A stretch of 35,609 nt of DNA from a virus, in the UHGV virus genome UHGV-0211441; one strand, 5' to 3'. The translations under genes and the position numbers were made by a program. Position 1 is the stretch's first letter. The number at the start of each line of letters is the position of its first letter. Positions 2,935 to 35,308 of the stretch are shown here, piece after piece. The notes beneath the pieces are model-generated. The model did no database searches. It was given only the letters and a program-made list of their open reading frames with translations, and was not told the origin of the DNA.

Positions 2935-3531
2935 ATGGCGCAGTATTCTTTTGTAAAAGCACCAGGCAATGTTTTAATTCCGGCGACGCCTGACGCGCGC
3001 GAATTTTTAGAAAAAAAAGTCCGCATGGGCGGCATTTTGTATGCGGATTTCAAGCAGGCAAGAAACCCGGCATTCCACCGTAAATTTTTTGCCCTCCTGA
3101 ATCTGGGCTTTGATTACTGGCAACCGTCCGGCGGTGCGATATCGCCAGCCGATAAAAAACTGGTACACGGCTATGTGCAGCTGGTGGCCCACTATGCCGG
3201 GCATGCCGACACTTTGCTGGAACTGGCGGATCAGTATCTCCGCGATGAAGCAGAAAAACGCGCCGGGAATATCAGCGCGGTAAAATCGTTTGAAGCATTC
3301 CGTTCCTGGGTGACTATCGAAGCCGGTTTTTATATCGAATACCAGATGCCTGATGGCACTACCCGCAAAGAACCAAAATCCATATCGTTCGCAAAAATGG
3401 ACGATGTAGAATTTTCCCAGCTGTATAAATCCGTATTAGATGTCCTCTGGAATTTTATTTTATTCCGCACCTTCCCGACGCAGCAGGCGGCCGAAAACGC
3501 AGCCTCGCAATTATTCAGCTATGCCGCGTGA
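2935..3531 (+). CDS. Phage protein, DUF1367-like (lambdoid nin-region protein)
   Basis: 198 aa. The start ATG is preceded by AAGGGGAA. The sequence resembles a conserved lambdoid prophage family, assigned from memory with moderate confidence. Confidence 0.55.
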   Translation: MAQYSFVKAPGNVLIPATPDAREFLEKKVRMGGILYADFKQARNPAFHRKFFALLNLGFDYWQPSGGAISPADKKLVHGYVQLVAHYAGHADTLLELADQYLRDEAEKRAGNISAVKSFEAFRSWVTIEAGFYIEYQMPDGTTRKEPKSISFAKMDDVEFSQLYKSVLDVLWNFILFRTFPTQQAAENAASQLFSYAA

Positions 3532-3845: not shown

Positions 3846-4000
3846 TTCCATCTCTAGGAGCAGCAGATAAATCTAGAAAGTGTGGTTGGCCAACGCGACG
3901 GGAAAGCATGAAATTCTGTCTGGCTCCTTTTTCCATTCTGGCGGGTGGCGATTTTGCCCCTCTCTATGCTCGCGCACGCGCGCGTTTAGGGGGGTGATTT

Positions 4001-4297
4001 ATGCCGCTGGTTGCCACCTTCCGAACAGACTGGTTCCGCGTCATTACCGACCTGACCAGGAAAAACCTCACCACTCAGCAAATCGCCGATGAACTTGGCG
4101 TTTCGAAATCTGCCGTTCTCGGTTGGAAATCCGGATCAGAACCTCGCCACGGTCACGGTGAGGCGCTGATCGCTCTCTGGTGTCTGGCTACCAGCTCAGA
4201 CCGTAAAAAACTCCCCACTGTGCTTTATCGGCAGTGGTGGACGTTCCGCCGCCCTGTTTTTGGTCGGGAAACTGACCAGAAGGGCAACACACAATGA
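4001..4297 (+). CDS. Small helix-turn-helix DNA-binding protein (candidate late-gene regulator or terminase-associated HTH protein)
   Basis: 98 aa. Strong RBS GGGGGGTGA. HTH segment LTTQQIADELGVSKSAVLGWKSG. It is the first gene of the late (+ strand) block. Confidence 0.5.
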   Translation: MPLVATFRTDWFRVITDLTRKNLTTQQIADELGVSKSAVLGWKSGSEPRHGHGEALIALWCLATSSDRKKLPTVLYRQWWTFRRPVFGRETDQKGNTQ

Positions 4298-5007: not shown

Positions 5008-6630
5008 ATGGATGAACTCGCCGTAAAGCTGGTTAAGCGTGCCGATACGCTGAAAGCCAACCGACAGGTGCACGAAAGCGTCTGGCGGGAATGCTATGAC
5101 TATACCTATCCGCTGCGCGGCGCGGGGCTATCCGATGAGGTACTGGACGCACAGAGCGCAAAATCGAAGGTGGCACGGCTGCTTGACGGCACGGCCACCG
5201 ACAGCGCCCGCATGCTGGCGTCTGCTCTCATGTCCGGCATGACCCCGGCAAACGCGCAATGGCTGAACCTCGACAGCGAATCACTGCCGGATGATGCCGC
5301 CGCGTGGTTGTCCACCTGCGCAACGCTGGTATGGGAAAACATCCACGCCGCCAACTTCGACGCCGAAGGCTATGAGGCGAATCTCGATGTGGTGTGCGCC
5401 GGCTGGTTCGCGCTGTACATCGACGAAGACCGCGAAGAGGGCGGATTCTCGTTCCAGCAGTGGCCGCTGGCGCAGTGCTTTGTCACATCCACTCGCCGCG
5501 ATGGCATCGTGGACACGATTTATCGCCGCTACCAGCTCACCGCAGAGCAGGCGATTAAAGAATTTGGCGCGGATAAGGTCAGTAAGAAGATTCGCGAGGC
5601 GGCCGCCAAAAAGCCGGATGACAAATTCGACTTCCTGCATTGCATTTTCCCGCGTGAAAACTACGTAGTGAATGCGCGCCTGGCTAAAAACTTGCGTTTT
5701 GCATCCTACAACGTGGAGGTGAGCGGCAAGCTCATTGTGCGCGAATCCGGTTATCACGAATTCCCCTGCTGCGTACCGCGCTGGATGAAAATCCCCGGCA
5801 CGCCGTACGGTATCGGCCCGGTATACGACGCGCTGCCAGACTGCAAAGAGCTGAACGAAACGAAGCGCATGGAGAAGGCCGCGCAGGATCTGGCGATTGC
5901 CGGGATGTGGATTGCGGAAGACGACGGCGTGCTTAACCCGCGTACGGTCAAAGTAGGCCCGCGCCGCATCATCGTGGCGAACAGCGTAGACAGCATGAAA
6001 CCGTTGCTCACCGGCGCAGATTTCAATGTGGCCTTTACCGCAGAAGAACGCCTGCAGGCATCTATCCGCAAAATTATGATGGCCGACCAGCTGCAACCGC
6101 AGGACGGCCCGGCGATGACCGCTACTGAAGTGCATGTGCGTGTAGCGTTGATCCGCCAGTTGCTTGGCCCGGTCTATGGCCGATTCCAGGCTGAATACCT
6201 GCAACCGCTGGTAGAGCGCTGTTTCGGTCTGGCATTCCGTGCCGGTGTATTCCCGCCTGCGCCGGATAGCCTGCAAAACGCCAATTTCAACGTGCGCTAT
6301 ATCTCGCCGCTTGCCCGCGCGCAGCAGCTGGAGAACGTCACCGCCATTGAACGTTTCAGCGCGAATATTGCGAACCTCACCAACATCGACCAGGAGGTTA
6401 TCGATCTTCTCGATGCCGATGAAGCCGGTCGTGTGGTGGCTGATGCGCTCGGCGTGCCGGCTAAGGTTGTTCGTACTTCCGATGCGGTCGCAGAAATTCG
6501 CGAGAAGCGCCAGAAGGAACGACAGCAGCAGGCAGGGCAGGCGCTGATGATGCAGGCAGGTAGCGAAGCGGCAACCACAGCAGGGCAGCAGGTGGGCGCA
6601 GCGCTGGGCCAACGAGTAGCGGGGGGCTAA
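5008..6630 (+). CDS. Portal (head-to-tail connector) protein, T7 gp8-like
   Basis: 540 aa. Length, position and conserved central segments (EFPCCVPRW...GIGPVYDALPD...) are consistent with the T7 connector family. The Gln/Ala-rich C-terminus is also as in T7 gp8. Family assigned from memory of T7 gp8. Confidence 0.8.
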   Translation: MDELAVKLVKRADTLKANRQVHESVWRECYDYTYPLRGAGLSDEVLDAQSAKSKVARLLDGTATDSARMLASALMSGMTPANAQWLNLDSESLPDDAAAWLSTCATLVWENIHAANFDAEGYEANLDVVCAGWFALYIDEDREEGGFSFQQWPLAQCFVTSTRRDGIVDTIYRRYQLTAEQAIKEFGADKVSKKIREAAAKKPDDKFDFLHCIFPRENYVVNARLAKNLRFASYNVEVSGKLIVRESGYHEFPCCVPRWMKIPGTPYGIGPVYDALPDCKELNETKRMEKAAQDLAIAGMWIAEDDGVLNPRTVKVGPRRIIVANSVDSMKPLLTGADFNVAFTAEERLQASIRKIMMADQLQPQDGPAMTATEVHVRVALIRQLLGPVYGRFQAEYLQPLVERCFGLAFRAGVFPPAPDSLQNANFNVRYISPLARAQQLENVTAIERFSANIANLTNIDQEVIDLLDADEAGRVVADALGVPAKVVRTSDAVAEIREKRQKERQQQAGQALMMQAGSEAATTAGQQVGAALGQRVAGG

Positions 6631-6863
6631 TGGCTATAAAACAAGTATCACCGGCGGACTACAAACGCATTTTCGAGGAAATGCCAGGCGGCCCGCAGGT
6701 ACTGGATGAATTAACGCGCCGATTCGGGCGTGCGGCGTATGTCCCCGGCGGCACCGAGGGCGATCGCGAAACCTGTTACCGGGCCGGACAACGTGCCGTG
6801 CTCGATTTCATTCTGATGCAAATCAACCGTGCAGATGGAGTAAACGACGATGTGGAAGATTAA
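6630..6863 (+). CDS. Hypothetical small protein (77 aa) between portal and scaffold
   Basis: ATG overlaps the portal stop (TAATG) with a GGGGGG SD sequence. No family recognised. Confidence 0.4.
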   Translation: MAIKQVSPADYKRIFEEMPGGPQVLDELTRRFGRAAYVPGGTEGDRETCYRAGQRAVLDFILMQINRADGVNDDVED

Positions 6864-7698
6864 ACACTTATTCATGAACGCCGAGCAGGGCGCCGAAGCG
6901 CCAGCAGGCAGCACAGGGGGCAATGATGGTGGCAATGGCGGTGGTGCTGAAAATCCGGGCGCTGATAATCCTGCTGGTATTTCACTTCTCAGCACCGGCG
7001 CAGGTGAACCGGGCGCGAATGACTGGATACCTGAAAAATACCGCGTTATGGGCGAAGGTGGAAAACTCGACATTGAAGGCTCTGCCCGCAAACTGGCGGA
7101 TGCTCATACGTCGCTTGAAAAGCGCCTTGGCAGCGTCGGCACGCCGCCAAAAACTGCTGATGACTACGCCCCAGAGGTAAAGGCCGAAGGCTTTAACTGG
7201 GAAGAATTCAAAGCTGACCCGCGCATGCAGTCGTTTATGAAATCGGCACACGGCAAGGGGATCACCAACGACCAGATGAGTTTCATCATCAGCGAGTATG
7301 CGCAAATCGCCCCGTCGCTGGTTAACGGTGCAGCGGAACTGGATGCTGAATCCGCTACCACGCAGCTGCGCGAAGTCTGGAAGACTGACGCCGAATTTAA
7401 CAAGAATATCGGCCTGGCCTTCCGCGCGTTCAATTCCCTGACCGATGAAGGCGATCGCGGCCGCATCGATGAAATCGGAAATAACCCGATGGTGATCCGC
7501 ATGCTGGCGAAAATCGGCGCGGAAATGCAGGAGGATGCACCAGCGGGCGCCGACAGCAACCCGGCAGAGCAGCAGACCATCCGCGACCTGATGAAGTCCG
7601 AAGCGTACATGAATCCGAAGCATACCGACCATGAACGTGTATCTGCACAGGTGAAAGCGTACTACCAGAAGCGTTACGGTGATCAAACCGTAGCGTGA
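6850..7698 (+). CDS. Scaffolding protein (T7 gp9-like)
   Basis: 282-aa acidic protein between portal and capsid, with a Gly/Asn-rich N-terminus. Confidence 0.6.
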   Translation: MWKIKHLFMNAEQGAEAPAGSTGGNDGGNGGGAENPGADNPAGISLLSTGAGEPGANDWIPEKYRVMGEGGKLDIEGSARKLADAHTSLEKRLGSVGTPPKTADDYAPEVKAEGFNWEEFKADPRMQSFMKSAHGKGITNDQMSFIISEYAQIAPSLVNGAAELDAESATTQLREVWKTDAEFNKNIGLAFRAFNSLTDEGDRGRIDEIGNNPMVIRMLAKIGAEMQEDAPAGADSNPAEQQTIRDLMKSEAYMNPKHTDHERVSAQVKAYYQKRYGDQTVA

Positions 7699-7731
7699 CA
7701 TGTCACGACAACTTAACCCGAGGAAAGACCA

Positions 7732-7896
7732 ATGAGCGACAAGAATCAACCTTTGAATCTTGAACAGCAGGAATTCATTTTCCGAACCAAAGCGGAATTA
7801 TTGGCCGAGCTTATTAAATTCCAAATCCCCGGTAAATCCGAAGCGGAAGAACTGGCAGAAGTGGTCAATGCCGCATTCGATAAATTAACGGCTTAA
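7732..7896 (+). CDS. Small hypothetical protein (54 aa), first gene of a two-gene moron-like cassette
   Basis: Start preceded by the conserved cassette CGAGGAAAGACCAATG. Not in the supplied ORF track because it is under 60 aa. Confidence 0.45.
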   Translation: MSDKNQPLNLEQQEFIFRTKAELLAELIKFQIPGKSEAEELAEVVNAAFDKLTA

Positions 7897-7911
7897 TTCG
7901 AGGAAAGACCA

Positions 7912-8181
7912 ATGAGTGAAGCAAAACCGCAAGATGGCAGCACCGTGAAAGGCTATAGAAAATTAAGCGACGCAGAAATCGCAGCAATGAATCGCCTAAA
8001 AGAACTGAGTCGCAATTTTATTCGCGAGTTGCGAAATATTCAGTTGGATTTGTTACCGCAGGATCCAGTTCTCTCTGATCGCACTGCTGCTTACCGTAGT
8101 GCCGCGTTGGCGACCACAAAAATGCAGGAAGCCTGTATGTGGGGATGCCGTGCGGTAGCCCGCCCGGATGGAGACTGCTAA
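7912..8181 (+). CDS. Small hypothetical protein (89 aa), second moron gene; candidate anti-defence or host-interaction factor
   Basis: Same CGAGGAAAGACCAATG cassette. Followed by its own intrinsic terminator, and inserted between the scaffold and capsid genes. Confidence 0.55.
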   Translation: MSEAKPQDGSTVKGYRKLSDAEIAAMNRLKELSRNFIRELRNIQLDLLPQDPVLSDRTAAYRSAALATTKMQEACMWGCRAVARPDGDC

Positions 8182-8199
8182 ATAATTCCTCGCGAACTA

Positions 8200-8228
8200 A
8201 GCCAGCCTAACCCGCTGGCTTTTTTATT
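8200..8228 (+). terminator. Rho-independent terminator (AGCCAGC-N7-GCTGGCT + TTTTTATTT)
   Basis: Stem-loop and T-run seen directly, 19 nt after the stop of the 89-aa ORF. Confidence 0.7.
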
Positions 8229-8229
8229 T

Positions 8230-8250
8230 GGTCGGGATTCCGACCGCGCA
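8230..8250 (+). repeat. Copy 1 of the repeated hairpin motif GGTCGGGATTCCGACCGCGCA
   Basis: 6-bp stem GGTCGG/CCGACC with loop GATT. 20 of 21 bp are identical to copy 3 at 20961. Confidence 0.8.
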
Positions 8251-8396
8251 CCTCGCTAACAATCACCCCACAACCAGCCCGGCGGGGACGCCGGATACCT
8301 GATTTTCCCGCAATGCGCCAGCGCCAACCGCATTGTGCTGATTTGGGCCGGGAAACCGATACCCCGCAGGCGATACTTTCTGGAGTGATTGTTATG

Positions 8397-9305
8397 TCAT
8401 TTGATACCGCTAAGAACATGATCACCGCTGCGTATGTTCAGCAGTTCCATGATTCTTTCGAAATTGCCGCGCAGCAGAAGGATTCCCGCCTGCAAGCTGC
8501 TGTTTTCGACCGTGGCAACATTACCGGTGCGTCGTTCACCATCAACGATATGGGTACCATCGAAATGACCCAGATCACCGAGCGTTTCGGTGATACCGTC
8601 TGGGATCTGCCTGATGCCGGCACCCGTAATGCGCTGATGGCTGACTATGGCGTATTCGTGCCGGTGGAAAAGCGCGACCTGCGCAAACTGCTGGCTGACC
8701 CGCAGGGGCCATATTTGCAGCTGACGCTGGCCGCATCCAACCGCAAAAAAGATGATGTCATCTATCGCGCACTGCTGGATGACGTTCTGCGCAAAACCTC
8801 CAACACTGGCGCGTACGCTCCGGTTGCGCTTCCCGCATCGCAGAAAATCGTCGCCGGCGGTACCGGGATGACCAAAGCGAAGCTGATCGCCGCCAAAGCC
8901 ATGTTCCGTCGTAACGAGTGTGACGAGCAGAACGGTGAAGAGCTGTATATCACCTACAACGCCGACATGCTGACCCAAATCCTCAGCGATACCACGCTGA
9001 CCAGCGCCGATTTCATGGCAGTGAAAATGCTGCAGGAAGGCGCAGTGTCTGGTAACTGGCTGGGCTTTAAGTGGCTGGCGTATGAAAAACTGGATTCTGC
9101 TTCAGCAGGTGATCCCGCTGTCACCACCAAAACCGCCGCAGCTTGGTGTAAATCTGCTGTGCATTTCGGTACCGGCGAAGAGTACAACGTCGATATCGGC
9201 CCGCGCCGCGATAAAAACAACACCATTCAGATTTCCGTCGATGCGTCCTATGGCGCAGGCCGCGCAGCGGAAAACAAAGTAGTCGCCATCGATTTCGTAG
9301 CATAA
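8397..9305 (+). CDS. Major capsid protein (T7 gp10-like)
   Basis: 302 aa. SD GGAGTGA. Position follows scaffold, and the gene is followed by a strong terminator as with T7 gene 10/Tphi. Confidence 0.75.
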   Translation, partial: SFDTAKNMITAAYVQQFHDSFEIAAQQKDSRLQAAVFDRGNITGASFTINDMGTIEMTQITERFGDTVWDLPDAGTRNALMADYGVFVPVEKRDLRKLLADPQGPYLQLTLAASNRKKDDVIYRALLDDVLRKTSNTGAYAPVALPASQKIVAGGTGMTKAKLIAAKAMFRRNECDEQNGEELYITYNADMLTQILSDTTLTSADFMAVKMLQEGAVSGNWLGFKWLAYEKLDSASAGDPAVTTKTAAAWCKSAVHFGTGEEYNVDIGPRRDKNNTIQISVDASYGAGRAAENKVVAIDFVA

Positions 9306-19020: not shown

Positions 19021-19037
19021 TAGTCAGGATTCCGACC
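19021..19037 (+). repeat. Copy 2 (degenerate) of the hairpin motif: TAGTCAGGATTCCGACC
   Basis: 14 of 16 positions match the other copies. Lies in the divergent region between the antisense moron and the terminase genes. Confidence 0.7.
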
Positions 19038-19432: not shown

Positions 19433-21039
19433 TTTCGTTCCTGGCCTTCTTTTTGATGTGGGCGGAACGGATGAACTGGGATGTGCCGGACTGCCACTAT
19501 AAAGCCTGCCACTGGCTGGAGCATCGCGGAAACCTCGCGGTGCTTCGCTGTTTTCGTGGCTTTGGTAAATCAACCATCCTGGGTGTTTATAACGCCTGGC
19601 GGTATTACTGCGATCGCCAGTACCGTATTCTGCATCAGTCTGAATCCGACACAACCGCCAGAAAGACCAGCCGCGATACACAAAACGTTCTGCGCAATCA
19701 TCCTCTGACGAAAGGCATGTTGCCGGACGGCATCGGTACCATCGAGCAATGGTGGGTAAACGGCGCGCTGGATATGCGTAACGCCAGCATGTTCGCGAAA
19801 GGCATTCTGTCGAACGTCACCGGCGCCCGTGCCAACGAATGCCAGAATGATGACGTGGAAGTGCCCGGCAATATCCAGACCCCGGAGGCTCGAGAAAAAC
19901 TGCGCTATCGCCTGAGTGAGCAGACGCATATTTTGATACCCGGAGGCCGGAAATTGTTTATCGGTACGCCGCATACACACGATAGCCTTTACGACGAGAA
20001 AGAAGCAGAGGGCGCTGATTGCCTGACGATAAAGCTATTCGATAAAGAGCACCGCGTCGAGGCGAAGAAGGCAACCAAAAAACGATACCGGATACCGTTC
20101 CGCCCGGAATATGTTTTCGTGGGTATCCACAAGGCCGCCCGGTTATTGATCGAGGGTACTGATTATCGATTGACGGAAGACGGTGTAGAGTTCGCGGCGC
20201 CGCCTGAAACTGTCGTGGATTTTTATGCCGGCTGCGCGTGGCCAGGCCGTTTCGATCATGATGAATTACTGCTGCGCCGTAAAGAGTGCCGCACCGTCAA
20301 CGAATGGGATAGCCAGTACCAGTTGCACAGTAAACCGGTTGGCGAGGTTCGCCTCGATCCCGACCGTATTCGCGAGTACAACGTCCAGCCTGAAATTCGT
20401 TACGCGAACCGTTCCTGCTCGATGTGGCTGGGCCAGACGCAAATCGTCGGTGCTGTCGCCTGGTGGGATGTGGCCACCGGCAAAGTTAAGGCCGATGCTT
20501 CGGCATTTTCCCTTATTTTCACCGATGCCCGCGGGCATCTTTACTGGCACGTTTGCCAGGGATTAACTGGTGAGCTGGCAGAGTTTGACGACAACGACAA
20601 AATCACCGGCGGTCAGGTAATGCAGATTAAAGAGCTGGTGCTGAAGTACCAGATCCCGCTGGTCTGTGTAGAAGTAAACGGCCCCGGCAGTTTCGCCGGG
20701 AAGTTGCTTATTCAGGCCCTGAAGGGTACCGGCTGCGGCGTACGGGAAGAATTCAGCGTCACCAACAAACAAAAACGCATCCTCGATGCATTCGAAGCGC
20801 CGCTGTCGTCCCGGTTCCTGTGGGCGCATACCGATGTGCTAGATGGCCCGATGTATGACCAGATGCGCGATTTTAACCCGGCGTTAACTAACCAACCAGA
20901 CGACTTTATTGATTCGGGATCCGGTGCGATCAGCGCTACACCTGTACGTATCGGGAAATTAGTCGGGATTCCGACCGCGCAGGCGAGGGAGCATTGGCAG
21001 CCATATGATGGCGACATTTCGGTCGCTGTAGATTACTAG
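19429..21039 (+). CDS. Terminase large subunit (T7 gp19-like)
   Basis: 536 aa. Walker A CFRGFGKST; family assigned from motif recognition. Confidence 0.8.
   Translation: MISFLAFFLMWAERMNWDVPDCHYKACHWLEHRGNLAVLRCFRGFGKSTILGVYNAWRYYCDRQYRILHQSESDTTARKTSRDTQNVLRNHPLTKGMLPDGIGTIEQWWVNGALDMRNASMFAKGILSNVTGARANECQNDDVEVPGNIQTPEAREKLRYRLSEQTHILIPGGRKLFIGTPHTHDSLYDEKEAEGADCLTIKLFDKEHRVEAKKATKKRYRIPFRPEYVFVGIHKAARLLIEGTDYRLTEDGVEFAAPPETVVDFYAGCAWPGRFDHDELLLRRKECRTVNEWDSQYQLHSKPVGEVRLDPDRIREYNVQPEIRYANRSCSMWLGQTQIVGAVAWWDVATGKVKADASAFSLIFTDARGHLYWHVCQGLTGELAEFDDNDKITGGQVMQIKELVLKYQIPLVCVEVNGPGSFAGKLLIQALKGTGCGVREEFSVTNKQKRILDAFEAPLSSRFLWAHTDVLDGPMYDQMRDFNPALTNQPDDFIDSGSGAISATPVRIGKLVGIPTAQAREHWQPYDGDISVAVDY
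20961..20981 (+). repeat. Copy 3 of the hairpin motif AGTCGGGATTCCGACCGCGCA, inside the 3' end of terL and 76 bp upstream of the tailspike gene
   Basis: Identical over 20 bp to copy 1. Confidence 0.8.
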
Positions 21040-23667: not shown

Positions 23668-23683
23668 AGTCGGGATTCCGACC
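23668..23683 (+). repeat. Copy 4 of the hairpin motif AGTCGGGATTCCGACC, followed by a nested inverted-repeat structure (23690..23738)
   Basis: Exact match to the core. Downstream lie GCCTTACCC...GGGTAAGGC 9-bp arms enclosing an ATCACT...AGTGAT inner palindrome. Confidence 0.8.
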
Positions 23684-25284: not shown

Positions 25285-26301
25285 TCATTTTTTCTGACCG
25301 CCAACAACCGGCACAATTTTAGTTTTCCTGTCATATATCGCCGTTTGTCTCGAATTCTTATGACCAGAAATTGCCTGCTTCTCCTCGAGGCTTCCTTCCA
25401 GATCAGAGACACCTTTAGCCTTCAGATCGTGAAATGTGAAATCTATCTGCAGGTGTGGGTACTTCTCCTGTGCTGCAATTTTGGCTTCGCGCCAGCGTGA
25501 ATTAAAACCGTCGCGAGTGTATTTACTGCCGCTGGTCTGGTGAATGACGAACAGGCTACGGATACCCGACTTTAACGGCAGGGAACGGGCGAGGGCGACG
25601 GCAGCGCGGAGACGTGGCGACCATGCCTTGATTTGCTTCACTCCTGTTTTCCCCTGGCGGATAAATATCCCGGTTTCCCGTATCTGGTCTTCAGTTAAAG
25701 CCAGCACATCGCTTTGTCTGGCCAGACACAAATAAGCTATTTCCATGGTGGCGCGCACTACGTCAGGAGCAACATCGTAAACCGCTTTGTATTCTTCGTC
25801 GGTGATGTAACGCTCTCGGGCTGTCTCTTTGAACTTCTTAACGCCCTGGCAGGGATTGTGCTGGACGTAACCCCGCTCGTAACCCCAGCGGAATACCCTC
25901 GAAAGAAAACTCTTTTCCCGGTTGGCCTGCGTTTTACTGGCAATGCCTCGTTGATCCATATATCGCCGGATGTGTTCAGGTTTAATTTTATCAGGGTTAA
26001 CTTTCCCGAATACTGGCAATACTTTTCCTGCGTATTTCGTATAGTCTTTTCTGGTTTCTGCCGCTAAATCCTGCCAGTCCGGGGACGCCATAAACTGTTC
26101 TGTGAGCGCCTGGAACGTTTTCCTTTCCGTCACTTCACCTACAGCTTTTTCATATGCCAGCCATACAGCGGATTGTGGTTCATTTAACCCACACAGGCGG
26201 ATCCCTTTGTTGTCTTTCGTACGGAATTCAAATGCAGCCTTTCCCCGGTATACTCGCGGGGGCATCCAGCTATCGGCAGGATTCTTTCGCTTTCCGGCCA
26301 T
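25285..26301 (-). CDS. Tyrosine integrase, lambda-Int family (N-terminal arm-type DNA-binding domain)
   Basis: 338 aa from MAGKRKNPADSWMPPRVYRGK. The N-terminus parallels the lambda Int arm-binding domain. C-terminal HDLKAKG...IYDR region carries the catalytic His and Tyr. Adjacent to the tRNA-fragment att core. Confidence 0.9.
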   Translation of the reverse strand: MAGKRKNPADSWMPPRVYRGKAAFEFRTKDNKGIRLCGLNEPQSAVWLAYEKAVGEVTERKTFQALTEQFMASPDWQDLAAETRKDYTKYAGKVLPVFGKVNPDKIKPEHIRRYMDQRGIASKTQANREKSFLSRVFRWGYERGYVQHNPCQGVKKFKETARERYITDEEYKAVYDVAPDVVRATMEIAYLCLARQSDVLALTEDQIRETGIFIRQGKTGVKQIKAWSPRLRAAVALARSLPLKSGIRSLFVIHQTSGSKYTRDGFNSRWREAKIAAQEKYPHLQIDFTFHDLKAKGVSDLEGSLEEKQAISGHKNSRQTAIYDRKTKIVPVVGGQKK

Positions 26302-26533
26302 CGAATATAGCTCCAAAATCAGGTTCGTCATTTTCGTGCGTTATCTCTTCCTTCTGGCCGCGGTACTTGATCGGGTTCAGGAAGTGGCCCCATGTGGTTT
26401 TAGGGTGGCCATCTGCTCTTTCCATGAAGAAGATGCCGGCCCGGCGCAGCGCCTCACATTGTTTTGATTTAAGTGGCGTCCCCGTCAGCTCGATCATTTC
26501 CTCTCTGGTTATGATGTCGTGATCGTGTCTCAT
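26270..26533 (-). CDS. Excisionase (lambda Xis-like winged helix)
   Basis: 87 aa. ITREEMIELTG...QCEALRRAGIFFMERADGHPKTTW parallels the lambda Xis winged-helix pattern (lambda Xis sequence quoted from memory). Overlaps the int start by ~30 nt. Uses the GAGGAAAGACCATG cassette. Confidence 0.6.
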   Translation of the reverse strand: MRHDHDIITREEMIELTGTPLKSKQCEALRRAGIFFMERADGHPKTTWGHFLNPIKYRGQKEEITHENDEPDFGAIFDGRKAKESCR

Positions 26534-27496: not shown

Positions 27497-29640
27497 TATG
27501 CTTTCTCCTCGGCTTTATTCAGTTCTTTGATGCGTCCGTCTTTAATCGTTATGAGTCGGCGCAAGCGGCCAGACAGATAGCGTTCATGTTGTGCGTCACC
27601 GTTGGCCTGTGCGGCCTTAATGTGAACATCGATTTCACGTGCGATAGGGGAGAACACGCCGTTTATTTCGTTCACTGTCACGCCATGTGCCAGGGTGTTA
27701 GCAACACGGCTAAGTTTGTCGTCAAACTCCTGGCGAAGACGTGCAGCGTCCTCTGCGGTTTCGCTGGCATTCTTCAGATCAAACTCTGCCTTGTTTTTCT
27801 GGCGGTATTCCAGATTGTCGTAAAGGCCCATGAAGATATCGCCACTGAAGCCGAGGCCAGATAAAGCCTTTTTGGTTGCATCAGTCAGCGATTTTTTTGT
27901 TGCCTCACCATCGCAGGTAATACCGTACTTACTGCCGTAAATGTATGGCGTGCAACCGTAGGCCGTTTCCTCGCCGCGCACACCATTCAGGATGTACCAG
28001 AGTCGCACGGTAACGACGTGATGCTGCTCGTTGACGGTATTTCCATTCCCGTCGAGCACTAACTCCCATGACGCATTGTTATCTTTCCCTTTCACCTGGC
28101 GTGTAATGGGGGCGCCGATATCGAAACGTTCCTCGAGGATGTCCACACCCCAGCCGATTCCCTTTGGCCCAAACTCGCGAGTGGCAAGCATGGTTAAATA
28201 GGTACCGTTGATCGAGGTACCGCCGCCGTTCTGCGTAAAGGCTTTAGTAAACCGTTCATCAGTTTTGAATACACGTTTCCACAGTTCTAAATTATCCTGT
28301 CCGATACTCTGCGCGCCGGCAGACTTCATTACTTCTTCAGCGTCAGGCAGTCTTTCAGCATGAATAATTTGCTTTGCCAGCACCTCGGCGTTATCAGCTA
28401 TTGTTTCCGCTTTAGTGCTTAACTTCTCTACTGGCTGTTCTGCATCACCAGAGGCATATACGCCATAGCCCATATCGTTGAGCGTCTCACGCGCCTGTTT
28501 GGCCTGGGTATCGGTTACCACCGGCTGTGGTGCTTCCGCTTTTTCGACCACGTTTGACGCGGTATTTTGCGTTGCCTCTGGTTGTTTAACGGATCCTTTC
28601 TCGGTTTCGTCAAAGCGGCCGTTTGCTTCCAGCCATGAATCAATGTGGCGGCGTAGGCTGTCAGGGAAATGGTAGGTATCTTTTGCCGGTACGTTCTGCA
28701 CTACACCAAAAATACTGTCTCGGTCATATTTGAGAATGTGCTCCGTGGTGCGAAGCGCCATTGACCAACGTTTAAAATCTTCGCGCTCGTCTGCAATGAT
28801 TTTCTCAGCATCGCGAAGGTTGCCTGATAATACTGGCGCGTCGGGAGAAATAGGGAGTAGGGCGACAGCGATCTCCTGATCCAGTGTTGCATAGGTATGT
28901 TTATAACCACGTTTTGGCGCGATTTTTACGTTGGTATCAGTGCTGGCGGCGCCGAGTGAGGAATTTTGGCCTGGTACCATTTCTTCACGTTTACCGGGAT
29001 TCTCAAGCCAGCGTTTTACAAATTGAGAAATAGCCGCTTTGCCCGGAGTCTGGTTTTCAAAATGGGAGAAAATGCCCTGAATAAGATTATTCAGCCCTTC
29101 AACATGCATGTGCTTAACTGGTTCGTTATTGTGCAGAGCACACAGAACGTTAAGGTTAAAACGATCTTCTTCTTCCAGTTCGGTATCACGGTTATTCAGG
29201 TTATCCAGATAATCCACAACCTGAGAATAGATATGGCCGTCAATCTGAGCGGTGCTAAACAGCAGAACGGCTGCAAAGCGTTCACCTGGGGAAACGGTCA
29301 TTAAATCGATAACATCATCGTCAGCGGGTAAATTTGATTCCTCACCGGCGGTGCCGTTCGCGGCAATGGAAACCCATTTTTCACCGTCGAAAGTATGTTG
29401 CTGGGCGAATAGCTCGTCGAACTGGCCAACGGTCGGCAGCGGCTGGCCTTCTTCGTGTTCCCACAGCTTCGGTTTAAAATAGTTGTCACCGTTCGCCGGG
29501 TAAGATTCCCAGAGTTTGCCGGTGATAATGCTTTCGGCGATTTTCTTGTTTGGTGCTTCGACGGCGATCGCCAGCTGCACGGCGCCGCAGTCTTTGATAG
29601 CCGATTTTTTTGGTTCGAATAAGCCGTTGTAGATGGTCAT
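27496..29640 (-). CDS. Single-strand annealing protein with C-terminal Rad52/Sak-like domain and ~400-aa N-terminal extension of unknown function
   Basis: 714 aa. The C-terminal region ...GEATKKSLTDATKKALSGLGFSGDIFMG parallels the Rad52 motif ...VTDGLKRALRSFGNALGN. Starts with the CGAGGAAAGACCAATG cassette. Confidence 0.6.
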   Translation of the reverse strand: MTIYNGLFEPKKSAIKDCGAVQLAIAVEAPNKKIAESIITGKLWESYPANGDNYFKPKLWEHEEGQPLPTVGQFDELFAQQHTFDGEKWVSIAANGTAGEESNLPADDDVIDLMTVSPGERFAAVLLFSTAQIDGHIYSQVVDYLDNLNNRDTELEEEDRFNLNVLCALHNNEPVKHMHVEGLNNLIQGIFSHFENQTPGKAAISQFVKRWLENPGKREEMVPGQNSSLGAASTDTNVKIAPKRGYKHTYATLDQEIAVALLPISPDAPVLSGNLRDAEKIIADEREDFKRWSMALRTTEHILKYDRDSIFGVVQNVPAKDTYHFPDSLRRHIDSWLEANGRFDETEKGSVKQPEATQNTASNVVEKAEAPQPVVTDTQAKQARETLNDMGYGVYASGDAEQPVEKLSTKAETIADNAEVLAKQIIHAERLPDAEEVMKSAGAQSIGQDNLELWKRVFKTDERFTKAFTQNGGGTSINGTYLTMLATREFGPKGIGWGVDILEERFDIGAPITRQVKGKDNNASWELVLDGNGNTVNEQHHVVTVRLWYILNGVRGEETAYGCTPYIYGSKYGITCDGEATKKSLTDATKKALSGLGFSGDIFMGLYDNLEYRQKNKAEFDLKNASETAEDAARLRQEFDDKLSRVANTLAHGVTVNEINGVFSPIAREIDVHIKAAQANGDAQHERYLSGRLRRLITIKDGRIKELNKAEEKA

Positions 29641-29672
29641 TGGTCTTTCCTCGTTTGTAACTAATTCGCTGG

Positions 29673-29957
29673 TTAGGCATCTTGTTTAATTTCAGGGAGC
29701 AGTCCAGCGATCACGCGTTCTGCCGTTTTTTTTGCTTCTTCCAACTGTTCTAGTTCGCGTTCGAGATGAACCTTTTGGCTTTCTGCCAGTTCTTTAATTT
29801 CTGATGAATCGACTTTGAGATAGCTCTCGCCGTTTCTACCTTCCGCTAAAATCCCGGAGGAGCGGCATTCGTTACTGCAAATATTGATAATTCTGTTTGC
29901 GCGATCTAAGCGGTCTTTAATTTCGCGAATTCTTTCAAGCAATTTTCTAATATCCAT
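29673..29957 (-). CDS. Hypothetical coiled-coil protein (94 aa), early-left operon
   Basis: Start at MDIRKLL with the GAGGAAAGACCATG cassette. The tool ORF is extended 13 codons upstream. Confidence 0.5.
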   Translation of the reverse strand: MDIRKLLERIREIKDRLDRANRIINICSNECRSSGILAEGRNGESYLKVDSSEIKELAESQKVHLERELEQLEEAKKTAERVIAGLLPEIKQDA

Positions 29958-30324: not shown

Positions 30325-30540
30325 AGCGACTCCTTGGTGATGTATACTCAGAGCCGATCGGCGACTCTGTCGTTGGTCTTTCCTCGCTACAGGGTTGGTC
30401 CCCTGTAGCACTCCTGGCGGATTGGTCTCCGCTGGGGTAAATCAGCCCACTCCGGTGGGCTTTTTTACGCCTGAAGGTTGCCGGTCTTTCCCGGCTGTCA
30501 GGATGGTCAGTCCCATTGGTCTTTCCTCGTTACCGTGTGA

Positions 30541-30744: not shown

Positions 30745-30812
30745 CGCAATTTACTTAAAAAATGTTAAGCTTGAAAGGGTGCGATTATAACTAAATGAAT
30801 TGTATGGTTATT
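30745..30812 (-). promoter_or_regulatory. pL-like leftward early promoter region with operator CTTA-N8-TAAG (30754..30769)
   Basis: Minus-strand candidates: TTCAAG-N16-TAAATT with the operator in the spacer, or TATAAT at 30784..30789. The 16-bp dyad CTTAAAAAATGTTAAG has the same half-sites as the pR operator. Confidence 0.4.
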
Positions 30813-31209
30813 TTTTTTGTGATTTTTTTCTTGTTGCTAAGAGCTCTTCAAATAGCTTGTTAAAGCCTTCAACGCGAGACTCCAATTCAGTCAAATGTCT
30901 ATCTTTTTCAGATTCGGGAAGTGAATCAAATAGATCCAGAAGTTTTAACTGGCGAGCATCTAATTCTTTTGGCAATTCTTCAACGGGGAGGGGGGATTGA
31001 TCTTCGTCGCCGTATAAGAGCCAGGTAGGGGAACACTTGAGAGCTTTACTCAATTTGAACAGGTTTTGCCCTCTAGGTTCTGTCTCACCGTTTTCCCATT
31101 TGAAAATTGTGACGTGCGAAACCTTCACAGCATCGGCCAGCTTTTGCTGTGACATATCGAGTTCTGTTCTTCTGCGACGAATACGGTCGTTTAGCTCTGC
31201 GTTTTTCAT
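30808..31209 (-). CDS. cI-like repressor, XRE-family HTH, no S24 peptidase domain
   Basis: 133 aa. HTH QQKLADAVKVSHVTIFKWENGE. C-terminal coiled coil. Essentially leaderless start, like lambda cI from pRM. Confidence 0.8.
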   Translation of the reverse strand: MKNAELNDRIRRRRTELDMSQQKLADAVKVSHVTIFKWENGETEPRGQNLFKLSKALKCSPTWLLYGDEDQSPLPVEELPKELDARQLKLLDLFDSLPESEKDRHLTELESRVEGFNKLFEELLATRKKSQKK

Positions 31210-34601: not shown

Positions 34602-34639
34602 CCGCGCCTGACCAGCGCGATATAACCGAGGAAAGACCA

Positions 34640-35308
34640 ATGACCACAAATTTAAATTACCCAAAACCAGTTAATCCGGATGATGGCTGCAACTGGTTAC
34701 CCGTTATTTTATGGCGCATGAACGCCGGCGCCCGCGCGCGTAGTCGTTCTGTATTTGTTGCCGCACCGCGACCAGAACCAGTGCCGGGGATTACTCCGCA
34801 AAAGCCAATTAAACGCGAAGCGCCGCTGCCAGCAGTTTCAGGCCGTCGCCGTAAAACCCATCTCGGTACCGTGATTTATTCCAAAGGCGAAAAAACCGTG
34901 CGCCTGAGCGAAGGTGTCACCGTCTGGTCTGCCGGCGCTAATGAGCATTTCGACAAAAAGACCGGTCAGCGTGTCGGCGGTGCTGGCCGTCATCGCCTGG
35001 TACTCGACAGCGTTCGTCCACTGCTTGCCAGCGACGATCAACCGGGCGCCGGGAAAGTTACCGCGCAGCAGCTGGTTGCCGTGATGAAAGGTAAAACTCT
35101 TTCTTATCAGACCATTCTCGCCCAGCTACAGAAACACTATCCAGAATGCCAGGTAACGATTAAAGAAATTCAGGATCGCGTATTCAGCATGTTCAATTCG
35201 AATTATGTCGGTATCACTCGGCATGACGATACGCCGGTAGTTCATTTCACGCTTAACAGCGTGGATCCCCGTTATTACGTCGAGTCAGCGAAAAACAAGA
35301 GGGTTTAA
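34640..35308 (+). CDS. Hypothetical protein (222 aa), nin-like region
   Basis: CGAGGAAAGACCAATG cassette. No family recognised. Confidence 0.5.
   Translation: MTTNLNYPKPVNPDDGCNWLPVILWRMNAGARARSRSVFVAAPRPEPVPGITPQKPIKREAPLPAVSGRRRKTHLGTVIYSKGEKTVRLSEGVTVWSAGANEHFDKKTGQRVGGAGRHRLVLDSVRPLLASDDQPGAGKVTAQQLVAVMKGKTLSYQTILAQLQKHYPECQVTIKEIQDRVFSMFNSNYVGITRHDDTPVVHFTLNSVDPRYYVESAKNKRV

Follow-up and report, generated by a model that had tools for sequence, protein, structure and literature searches.

A predicted Acb2-family sponge gene and an orphan leader gene in a variable slot between the scaffold and capsid genes of a Klebsiella-type temperate podophage

Two small open reading frames (ORFs), of 54 and 89 aa, lie between the scaffold and major capsid genes of the virus genome UHGV-0211441, raising the question of whether they help to build the virion, form a self-contained moron, or represent anti-defence cargo carried within a structural operon. 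A preliminary description of the DNA favoured the latter two ideas in combination. The window, meaning the whole 35,609-nt stretch that was analysed, holds a temperate podophage of ~35 kb, and the region studied here falls inside its late structural block. The phage is a Klebsiella-type temperate podophage with T7-type portal and tail modules, and the closest protein matches of both small ORFs come from Klebsiella species. The earlier label "T7-like" holds for the portal, the terminase, and the tail-fibre N-terminus, all T7-type, but not for the lifestyle or the complete gene set, as the phage is temperate and encodes an integrase, a helix-turn-helix (HTH) repressor, and a Bbp19 gene. The scaffold gene is syntenic with the "endoprotease"/scaffold of Yersinia phage YeP4, and tail genes come after the capsid gene. 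Both ORFs were located where they had been described, among the following features.

5008-6630, + strand: portal gene (PF12236)
6630-6863, + strand: Bbp19 gene (PF25181)
6850-7698, + strand: scaffold gene, 282 aa (phrog_3742 at 1.8e-80); left flank of the slot and final backbone gene of its transcription unit
7719-7734, + strand: translation-initiation cassette CGAGGAAAGACCAATG, copy 1, with the ribosome-binding site (RBS) and start codon of ORF54; exact match
7732-7896, + strand: ORF54, an orphan of 54 aa, acidic and modelled as helix-loop-helix; optional first gene of the slot
7899-7914, + strand: translation-initiation cassette CGAGGAAAGACCAATG, copy 2, with the RBS and start codon of acb2; exact match
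7912-8181, + strand: ORF89, acb2 homolog, 89 aa (PF24729); predicted cyclic di-/trinucleotide sponge
8199-8229, + strand: rho-independent terminator of the portal-scaffold unit, a backbone element (terminator scan and fold)
8230-8245, + strand: hairpin motif GGTCGGGATTCCGACC, a backbone punctuation element before the capsid leader, conserved in YeP4
8394-9305, + strand: major capsid gene, 303 aa (PF19821 at 1.2e-67); right flank of the slot
25285-26331, - strand: integrase
30808-31209, - strand: HTH repressor

Insertion boundaries and transcriptional setting

Boundaries of the inserted DNA were drawn by comparing junctions with relatives whose slot is empty (YeP4 and the loci L033 and L046). 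The block comprises 490 bp (7709-8198, + strand) and stands in place of 11 bp, TATACCAATCG, that the empty allele has there. In L033, whose scaffold gene is 99% identical, the junction reads ...GTAGCGTGACATGTCACGA-TATACCAATCG-AAGCCAGCC, the last part being the terminator; as these 11 bp are swapped for 7709-8198 in the window, the cargo sits between the scaffold stop codon and a pre-existing scaffold terminator. In YeP4, the gap between scaffold and capsid genes is 213 bp and contains no ORF, and the identical terminator and hairpin are retained (AGCCAGCCTAACCGCTGGCTTTTT...GGTCGGGA). Direct passage from scaffold to capsid gene is indeed common among relatives, as had been supposed, occurring in YeP4 and in 42 of 94 relatives sampled by scaffold homology, with gaps of 181-221 bp.

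A terminator does follow the two ORFs. Both the terminator scan and the minimum-free-energy fold place it at 8199-8229, with an 8-bp stem at 8199-8221 plus a T-tract. The earlier claim that it is the cargo's own did not survive comparison, however, as the same AAGCCAGCCTAACCCGCTGGCTTTTTT terminator and hairpin directly follow the scaffold gene in the cargo-less YeP4, L033, and L046; a terminator that travels with the cargo is ruled out by its presence without cargo in YeP4 and L033. In one allele carrying Acb4 (L008, ~5560-5590), another terminator stem, GCCCGCCAATGCGCGGGC, is joined to the same T-tract and hairpin; compared with 8199-8221 of the window, the right-hand exchange point of that allele thus falls not ahead of the stem but at the T-tract.

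A scan limited to sigma-70 consensus sites, which a phage-specific late promoter within the slot would escape, returned no + strand promoter between 6000 and 10500. With no such promoter detected and a terminator that belongs to the backbone, the block loses its description as a self-contained expression unit. The term moron fits in part: the block is an accessory insertion in a structural operon, between genes that are adjacent in relatives, but it lacks its own promoter and terminator. Given a position upstream of the backbone terminator and no detected promoter, the cargo would be made as the 3' tail of a late transcript, such that ORF54 and acb2 are probably expressed at the end of the portal-Bbp19-scaffold message while structural proteins accumulate. 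The forward orientation within the late unit likewise points to late lytic expression, and no feature of the block speaks for the prophage-state expression raised earlier.

The hairpin motif immediately after the terminator (8230-8245) was also as described. Further copies occur at 19022-19037, 20961-20976, and 23668-23683, with a weak copy at 4262-4277, between a terminator-like T-tract immediately upstream and the portal operon downstream. In the form (A/G)GTC(G/A)GGATTCCGACC, the motif repeatedly marks the start of late gene blocks, and two copies directly follow a T-tract terminator. This arrangement suggests late transcription units punctuated by a terminator and then the hairpin, and the hairpin itself may mark a late promoter, an activator site, or a point of RNA processing. 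The capsid leader that comes next (8246-8393, ~150 nt) is highly conserved across relatives as far as YeP4, and the segment 8182-8396, including terminator and hairpin motif, folds far better than shuffled sequences (z = -3.9). Rfam returned no family for the capsid leader region, and across 7600-8500 gave only a sub-threshold Trp-leader match over the terminator (20.9 bits versus 41), taken as chance.

ORF89 and the Acb2 family

The proposal that the 89-aa protein is an Acb2-type anti-defence sponge is borne out by profile searches. Against Pfam, ORF89 matches PF24729 (Acb2/Tad1 hairpin) at E=1.2e-16, with 61 bits versus a gathering cutoff of 27, over profile positions 1-58 of 58. Searches of all PDB chains with phmmer retrieved the PaMx33/PaP2-type Acb2 "p26" (8h2j/8ixz, ~3e-5; 2.8e-5 for 8h2j) and T4 Vs.4 (7uq2, 4.4e-4). 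A profile built from 38 homologs reached Acb2 structures at 1.2e-13 (PaMx33-type) and 2.8e-12 (T4 Vs.4) and matched Acb2 entries only. The database holds 432 homologs; of the listed ones that have a Pfam entry, all are PF24729, and the nearest, at 97% identity, are Klebsiella quasipneumoniae proteins already named "Acb2/Tad1 domain-containing protein".

Structural comparison agrees, weakly. The AlphaFold2 (AF2) model of ORF89 (pLDDT 80) has short N-terminal strands and long helices at 20-42 and 57-81, in keeping with the ~90-aa protomer and two long antiparallel helices of Acb2. Foldseek searches of the PDB with the monomer model rank T4 Vs.4 first to third at E 0.12-0.21; these values are non-significant on their own, and the assignment therefore rests on sequence profiles. 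Tad1 is set apart by a larger protomer, an extra domain with a gcADPR pocket, and homology to solved Tad1; ORF89 has 89 aa and a single hairpin domain, and the 38-homolog profile found no Tad1 entry in the PDB at E<=1, so this identity was rejected. ORF89 is thus a clear member of the Acb2 family and a predicted cyclic-oligonucleotide sponge. The family itself is already well studied, a recent preprint having worked with 4,204 non-redundant homologs (PMC12393519), and near-identical Klebsiella proteins bear the Acb2/Tad1 name. The window also contains an AbiL-like defence pair (734-2492, - strand), comprising a 407-aa AAA_21 ATPase (PADLOC AbiLi, 9.7e-71) and a 174-aa RloB-like protein (AbiLii, 3e-12), so this phage carries both a defence system and an anti-defence gene.

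Residues that hold ligands in PaMx33 Acb2, established by experiment (PMC10312549 and PMC12393519), can be traced into ORF89 through HMMER alignments. Y15/L18/K30/P85 of ORF89 correspond to the dinucleotide-pocket residues Y11/L14/K26/P90 of PaMx33, and R62/A65/L66/T69 correspond to the trinucleotide-pocket residues R67/A70/I71/T74, which define a subset of the Acb2 family rather than the whole. Across the 38 enterobacterial homologs, Y15, K30, R62, and T69 show either no variation or at least 90% conservation. By homology, ORF89 should sequester CBASS dinucleotides and cA3-type trinucleotides, as the PaMx33 and JBD67 proteins do. We infer a hexamer, in which cyclic dinucleotides such as 3'3'-cGAMP would be held in the Tyr/Lys pocket and cyclic trinucleotides (cA3/cAAG) in the Arg/Thr pocket, so that CBASS effectors would stay inactive.

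The ligand range deserves caution. T4 Acb2 does not bind cA3 despite a conserved Thr (PMC10312549), and certain homologs, such as Acb2_43, bind 3'cADPR and not CBASS signals (PMC12393519), so a few residues are an unsafe guide. ORF89 might accordingly be an Acb2 fold whose specificity has moved to another immune signal, such as the 3'cADPR of Thoeris, and the short N-terminal strands of its AF2 model recall the N-terminal beta-strand through which Acb2_43 binds. This reading is very unlikely, however, as all four PaMx33-type cyclic dinucleotide contacts are kept, whereas Acb2_43 uses L6, V7, H5, K19, and K55. In addition, the slots of relatives often pair Acb2 with Tad2, a Thoeris sponge, which suits complementary rather than redundant specificities and favours CBASS oligonucleotides as the ligands of ORF89.

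Slot polymorphism, ORF54, and module exchange

Relatives with a homologous scaffold gene were gathered, from 80 viral contigs and 18 genome loci, and the gap between scaffold and capsid genes was measured. In the unbiased set of 94 loci, the slot is empty in 42 (gap 181-221 bp) and occupied in 52 (gap 405-1237 bp). Clustering of the slot ORFs, with representatives confirmed by Pfam, showed that 36 of the 52 occupied slots (36 of all 94 loci) carry at least one of the sponges Acb2, Acb4 (PF13876, equated with Acb4 in PMC11722364), and Tad2 (PF11195), single or stacked. Acb2 was counted in 18 of the 94 loci, Acb4 in 14, and Tad2-like proteins in 8. Each of the three occurs alone, and stacked architectures include Tad2-Acb2, ORF54-Acb2, ORF54-Acb4, ORF54-Tad2, ORF54-Tad2-Acb4, and ORF54-Tad2-Acb2. 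The 15 backbones whose scaffolds are at least 96% identical show six different slot states, so turnover is fast and the site is an anti-signalling hot spot with quickly changing content.

These data bear directly on whether ORF54 and ORF89 are virion-assembly accessories, such as scaffold or decoration helpers of the structural module. Such a role would suit their location between the scaffold and capsid genes and their shared orientation with the late genes, but both are missing in 42 of the 94 relatives, including backbones whose scaffold and capsid are 98-99% identical, and unrelated sponge genes take the place of ORF89 at the same site. ORF89 is moreover an Acb2-family protein whose gene adjoins lysis genes in unrelated siphophages. 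The empty slots, the family membership, and the replacement by other sponges leave an assembly role scarcely tenable and effectively refuted.

Several slot occupants in relatives are unannotated. Minus-strand ORFs of ~83-105 aa occur in E. coli 23GD11002 (L004, 13091-13342), in L040/L042/L044/L045 (~3868-4242), and in L098 (3883-4176); they form two families, one of which looks signal-peptide-bearing (97-aa protein). On the plus strand, there are proteins of 158-190 aa (L023, 3730-4206; L058, 3883-4455) and 238 aa (L069, 3986-4702). Pfam searches with the minus-strand ORFs and the 97-aa, 158-190-aa, and 238-aa proteins gave no match, and all are candidates for anti-defence or lysogenic-conversion genes.

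ORF54 is harder to place. Pfam gave no family at E<=10, the best PHROGs value was only 0.15, PADLOC gave no match, and PDB sequences yielded only chance matches to FANCF at E about 1. Nine close clusters of homologs were found, all in Klebsiella-type prophages, and an exhaustive HMM search of 1.84 billion representative proteins recovered five clusters, all of the same orphan family except one repetitive 1257-aa protein. The AF2 model is a helix-loop-helix (pLDDT 74); Foldseek searches of PDB and BFVD (best E 1.6-2.7) are uninformative for a helical hairpin of 54 aa. The protein is acidic (pI 4.6, charge -4.5), which makes protein binding likelier than nucleotide binding.

Could ORF54 be a spurious or decaying frame carried between two RBS cassettes? 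It is only 54 aa long, its family is not detectable, it occurs in just 3 of the 94 unbiased loci, and its variants include a truncated one (P0129, 37 aa) and one that resembles a frameshift (P0132). Yet the full-length frame is kept at 75-98% identity across contexts with differing downstream cargo, variable sites fall 13/5/20 by codon position, codon differences divide almost evenly into synonymous and nonsynonymous (181 versus 170), the RBS cassette is exact and strong, and the helix-loop-helix model is confident. A non-functional frame is therefore unlikely, and ORF54 looks like a real gene, a lineage-restricted orphan under purifying selection. It occurs in this slot only, and in all of the ~20 contexts examined it stands first there, followed by a sponge from any of three families unrelated to one another (Acb2, Acb4, or Tad2), and never alone, an association that is suggestive only, as these contexts are not independent. 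The most likely role of ORF54 is that of a small accessory or anti-defence factor that binds protein, not that of a nucleotide sponge. That it founds a small anti-defence family tied to sponges as a class, for example as a counter to sponge-sensing immunity such as Panoptes, is a bolder idea and distinctly unlikely. Panoptes, a defence system present in K. pneumoniae KP67, is activated by Acb2 and Tad1 and to a slight degree by Tad2 (PMC12657218); hypothetically, it offers a plausible selective reason for the presence/absence polymorphism of sponges.

Both small ORFs use the conserved cassette noted in the preliminary description, with exact copies of CGAGGAAAGACCAATG at 7719 and 7899 that form a direct repeat 180 bp apart. 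Allowing up to three mismatches, the window contains eight copies versus 0.3 expected, and none of 100 shuffles reached eight. In relatives, too, this cassette or a variant close to it stands ahead of most forward-oriented cargo genes of the slot. Copies are also present in the early operons (29638-29653, - strand; 30514-30529, - strand; 34627-34642, + strand), with near copies at 29954 (-), 30371 (-), and 31997 (+), and the early genes so headed include ORFs of 714 aa and 222 aa, both without a Pfam match. The 16-nt RBS/ATG cassette is a phage-wide standard translation-initiation region.

The repeat also hints at how modules may be exchanged. In one relative (L034), acb2 stands directly behind cassette copy 1, and this allele differs from the window by exactly the 180-bp ORF54 unit, as if that unit had been gained or lost between cassette repeats. 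Recombination at the cassette is a reasonable putative mechanism for stacking and swapping modules, and the shared RBS cassette plausibly serves as a recombination junction between cargo modules. The acb2 coding sequence alone is 82% identical in nucleotides in the unrelated siphophages vB_EcoS-716R3 and Kpn_R1, and over part of its length in HK639; there it sits after lysis (spanin) genes and behind a different RBS. By these comparisons, acb2 moves between phage families and the cassette belongs to the podophage backbone, and the other RBSs in unrelated phages rule out that the cassette is part of the acb2 cargo. In vB_EcoS-716R3 (L002, ~3330-3360), a near copy of the cassette, TCGAGGATAAACCAATG, lies just downstream of acb2, ahead of an ORF of three codons, and may be left over from an exchange with the podophage lineage.

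Significance and comparison with known systems

The whole reading, in which an Acb2-family sponge and ORF54 are modules of a late-transcribed, fast-turning anti-signalling slot upstream of a backbone terminator, is given a probability of about 0.8. What it shows directly is that ORF89 belongs to the Acb2 family and keeps the pocket residues, where the insertion begins and ends, that the terminator comes from the backbone, and that the slot is polymorphic; it extends by inference to the hexamer, the ligand range, the timing of expression, recombination at the cassette, and any role of ORF54. What is new is modest: another phage lineage, a position at the tail of a late structural unit, modular junctions at an RBS cassette, and an orphan leader gene. 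The analysis adds a well-defined enterobacterial member to the Acb2 family with both ligand pockets conserved, and indicates that one lineage of temperate Klebsiella-type podophages keeps a dedicated, fast-turning sponge slot at what would be the 3' end of a late structural transcript. This slot is a hunting ground, with ORF54, the 158-190-aa and 238-aa proteins, and the minus-strand ORFs as anti-defence or conversion candidates. The natural, near-isogenic empty, Acb2, Acb4, and Tad2 alleles would also allow a clean weighing of the benefit of sponges (against CBASS and Thoeris) versus their cost (Panoptes) in Klebsiella.

Among characterized proteins, ORF89 most resembles the Acb2 of PaMx33/PaP2 (8H2J, 8IXZ) and T4 Vs.4 (7UQ2), sharing PF24729, a similar length, a predicted fold in which short N-terminal strands precede a pair of long antiparallel helices, and the Tyr/Leu/Lys/Pro dinucleotide pocket. 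Its Arg/Thr trinucleotide pocket is conserved as in PaMx33 and JBD67, unlike T4. It differs from the PaMx33 and T4 proteins in that a strong match needs the family profile rather than a single sequence. The enterobacterial subfamily has a signature of its own, with an invariant MSEAKPQDGSTVKGYR N-terminus and a Cys-rich C-terminus ending CMWxCRAVARPDxDC.

Classical lambdoid morons, in the Hendrix/Juhala definition, come with a promoter and a terminator of their own, and their expression from the prophage is common. The inserted block is similar to these in being extra DNA between genes that are adjacent in relatives, with cargo that varies among relatives, yet it has neither promoter nor terminator of its own. 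Minus-strand inserts in certain relatives, such as L004, are closer to the classical moron than the block in the window.

ORF54 invites comparison with Sequestin (PF21825), a short alpha-helical sponge that is fused or adjacent to Tad2/Acb4 (PMC12265669). Both are short and alpha-helical, ORF54 adjoins Tad2, Acb4, or Acb2 genes, and the same guilt-by-association logic applies. ORF54 is smaller, however, at 54 aa versus about 60-80 aa, and acidic, whereas sponge pockets are described as positively charged. Identity with Sequestin is not supported, as ORF54 has no PF21825 match at E<=10 and no significant Foldseek match in BFVD or PDB.

The closest parallel to the slot as a whole is the anti-signalling hot spot of N4-like phages, whose cargo includes Tad2, Acb4, and Sequestin (bioRxiv 10.64898/2026.06.04.730250). 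Like this N4-like/Migulavirinae locus, the slot is compact and holds varying combinations of sponges, Tad2 and Acb4 in both, together with uncharacterised small genes. The lineage differs, the phage described here being temperate with a T7-type portal and a BPP-1-type Bbp19. The location differs as well: the N4-like hot spot lies between early or replication genes, whereas this slot lies between the scaffold stop codon and the terminator of a late structural unit. Finally, modules here are headed by a repeated 16-nt RBS cassette, and Acb2 is the commonest cargo.
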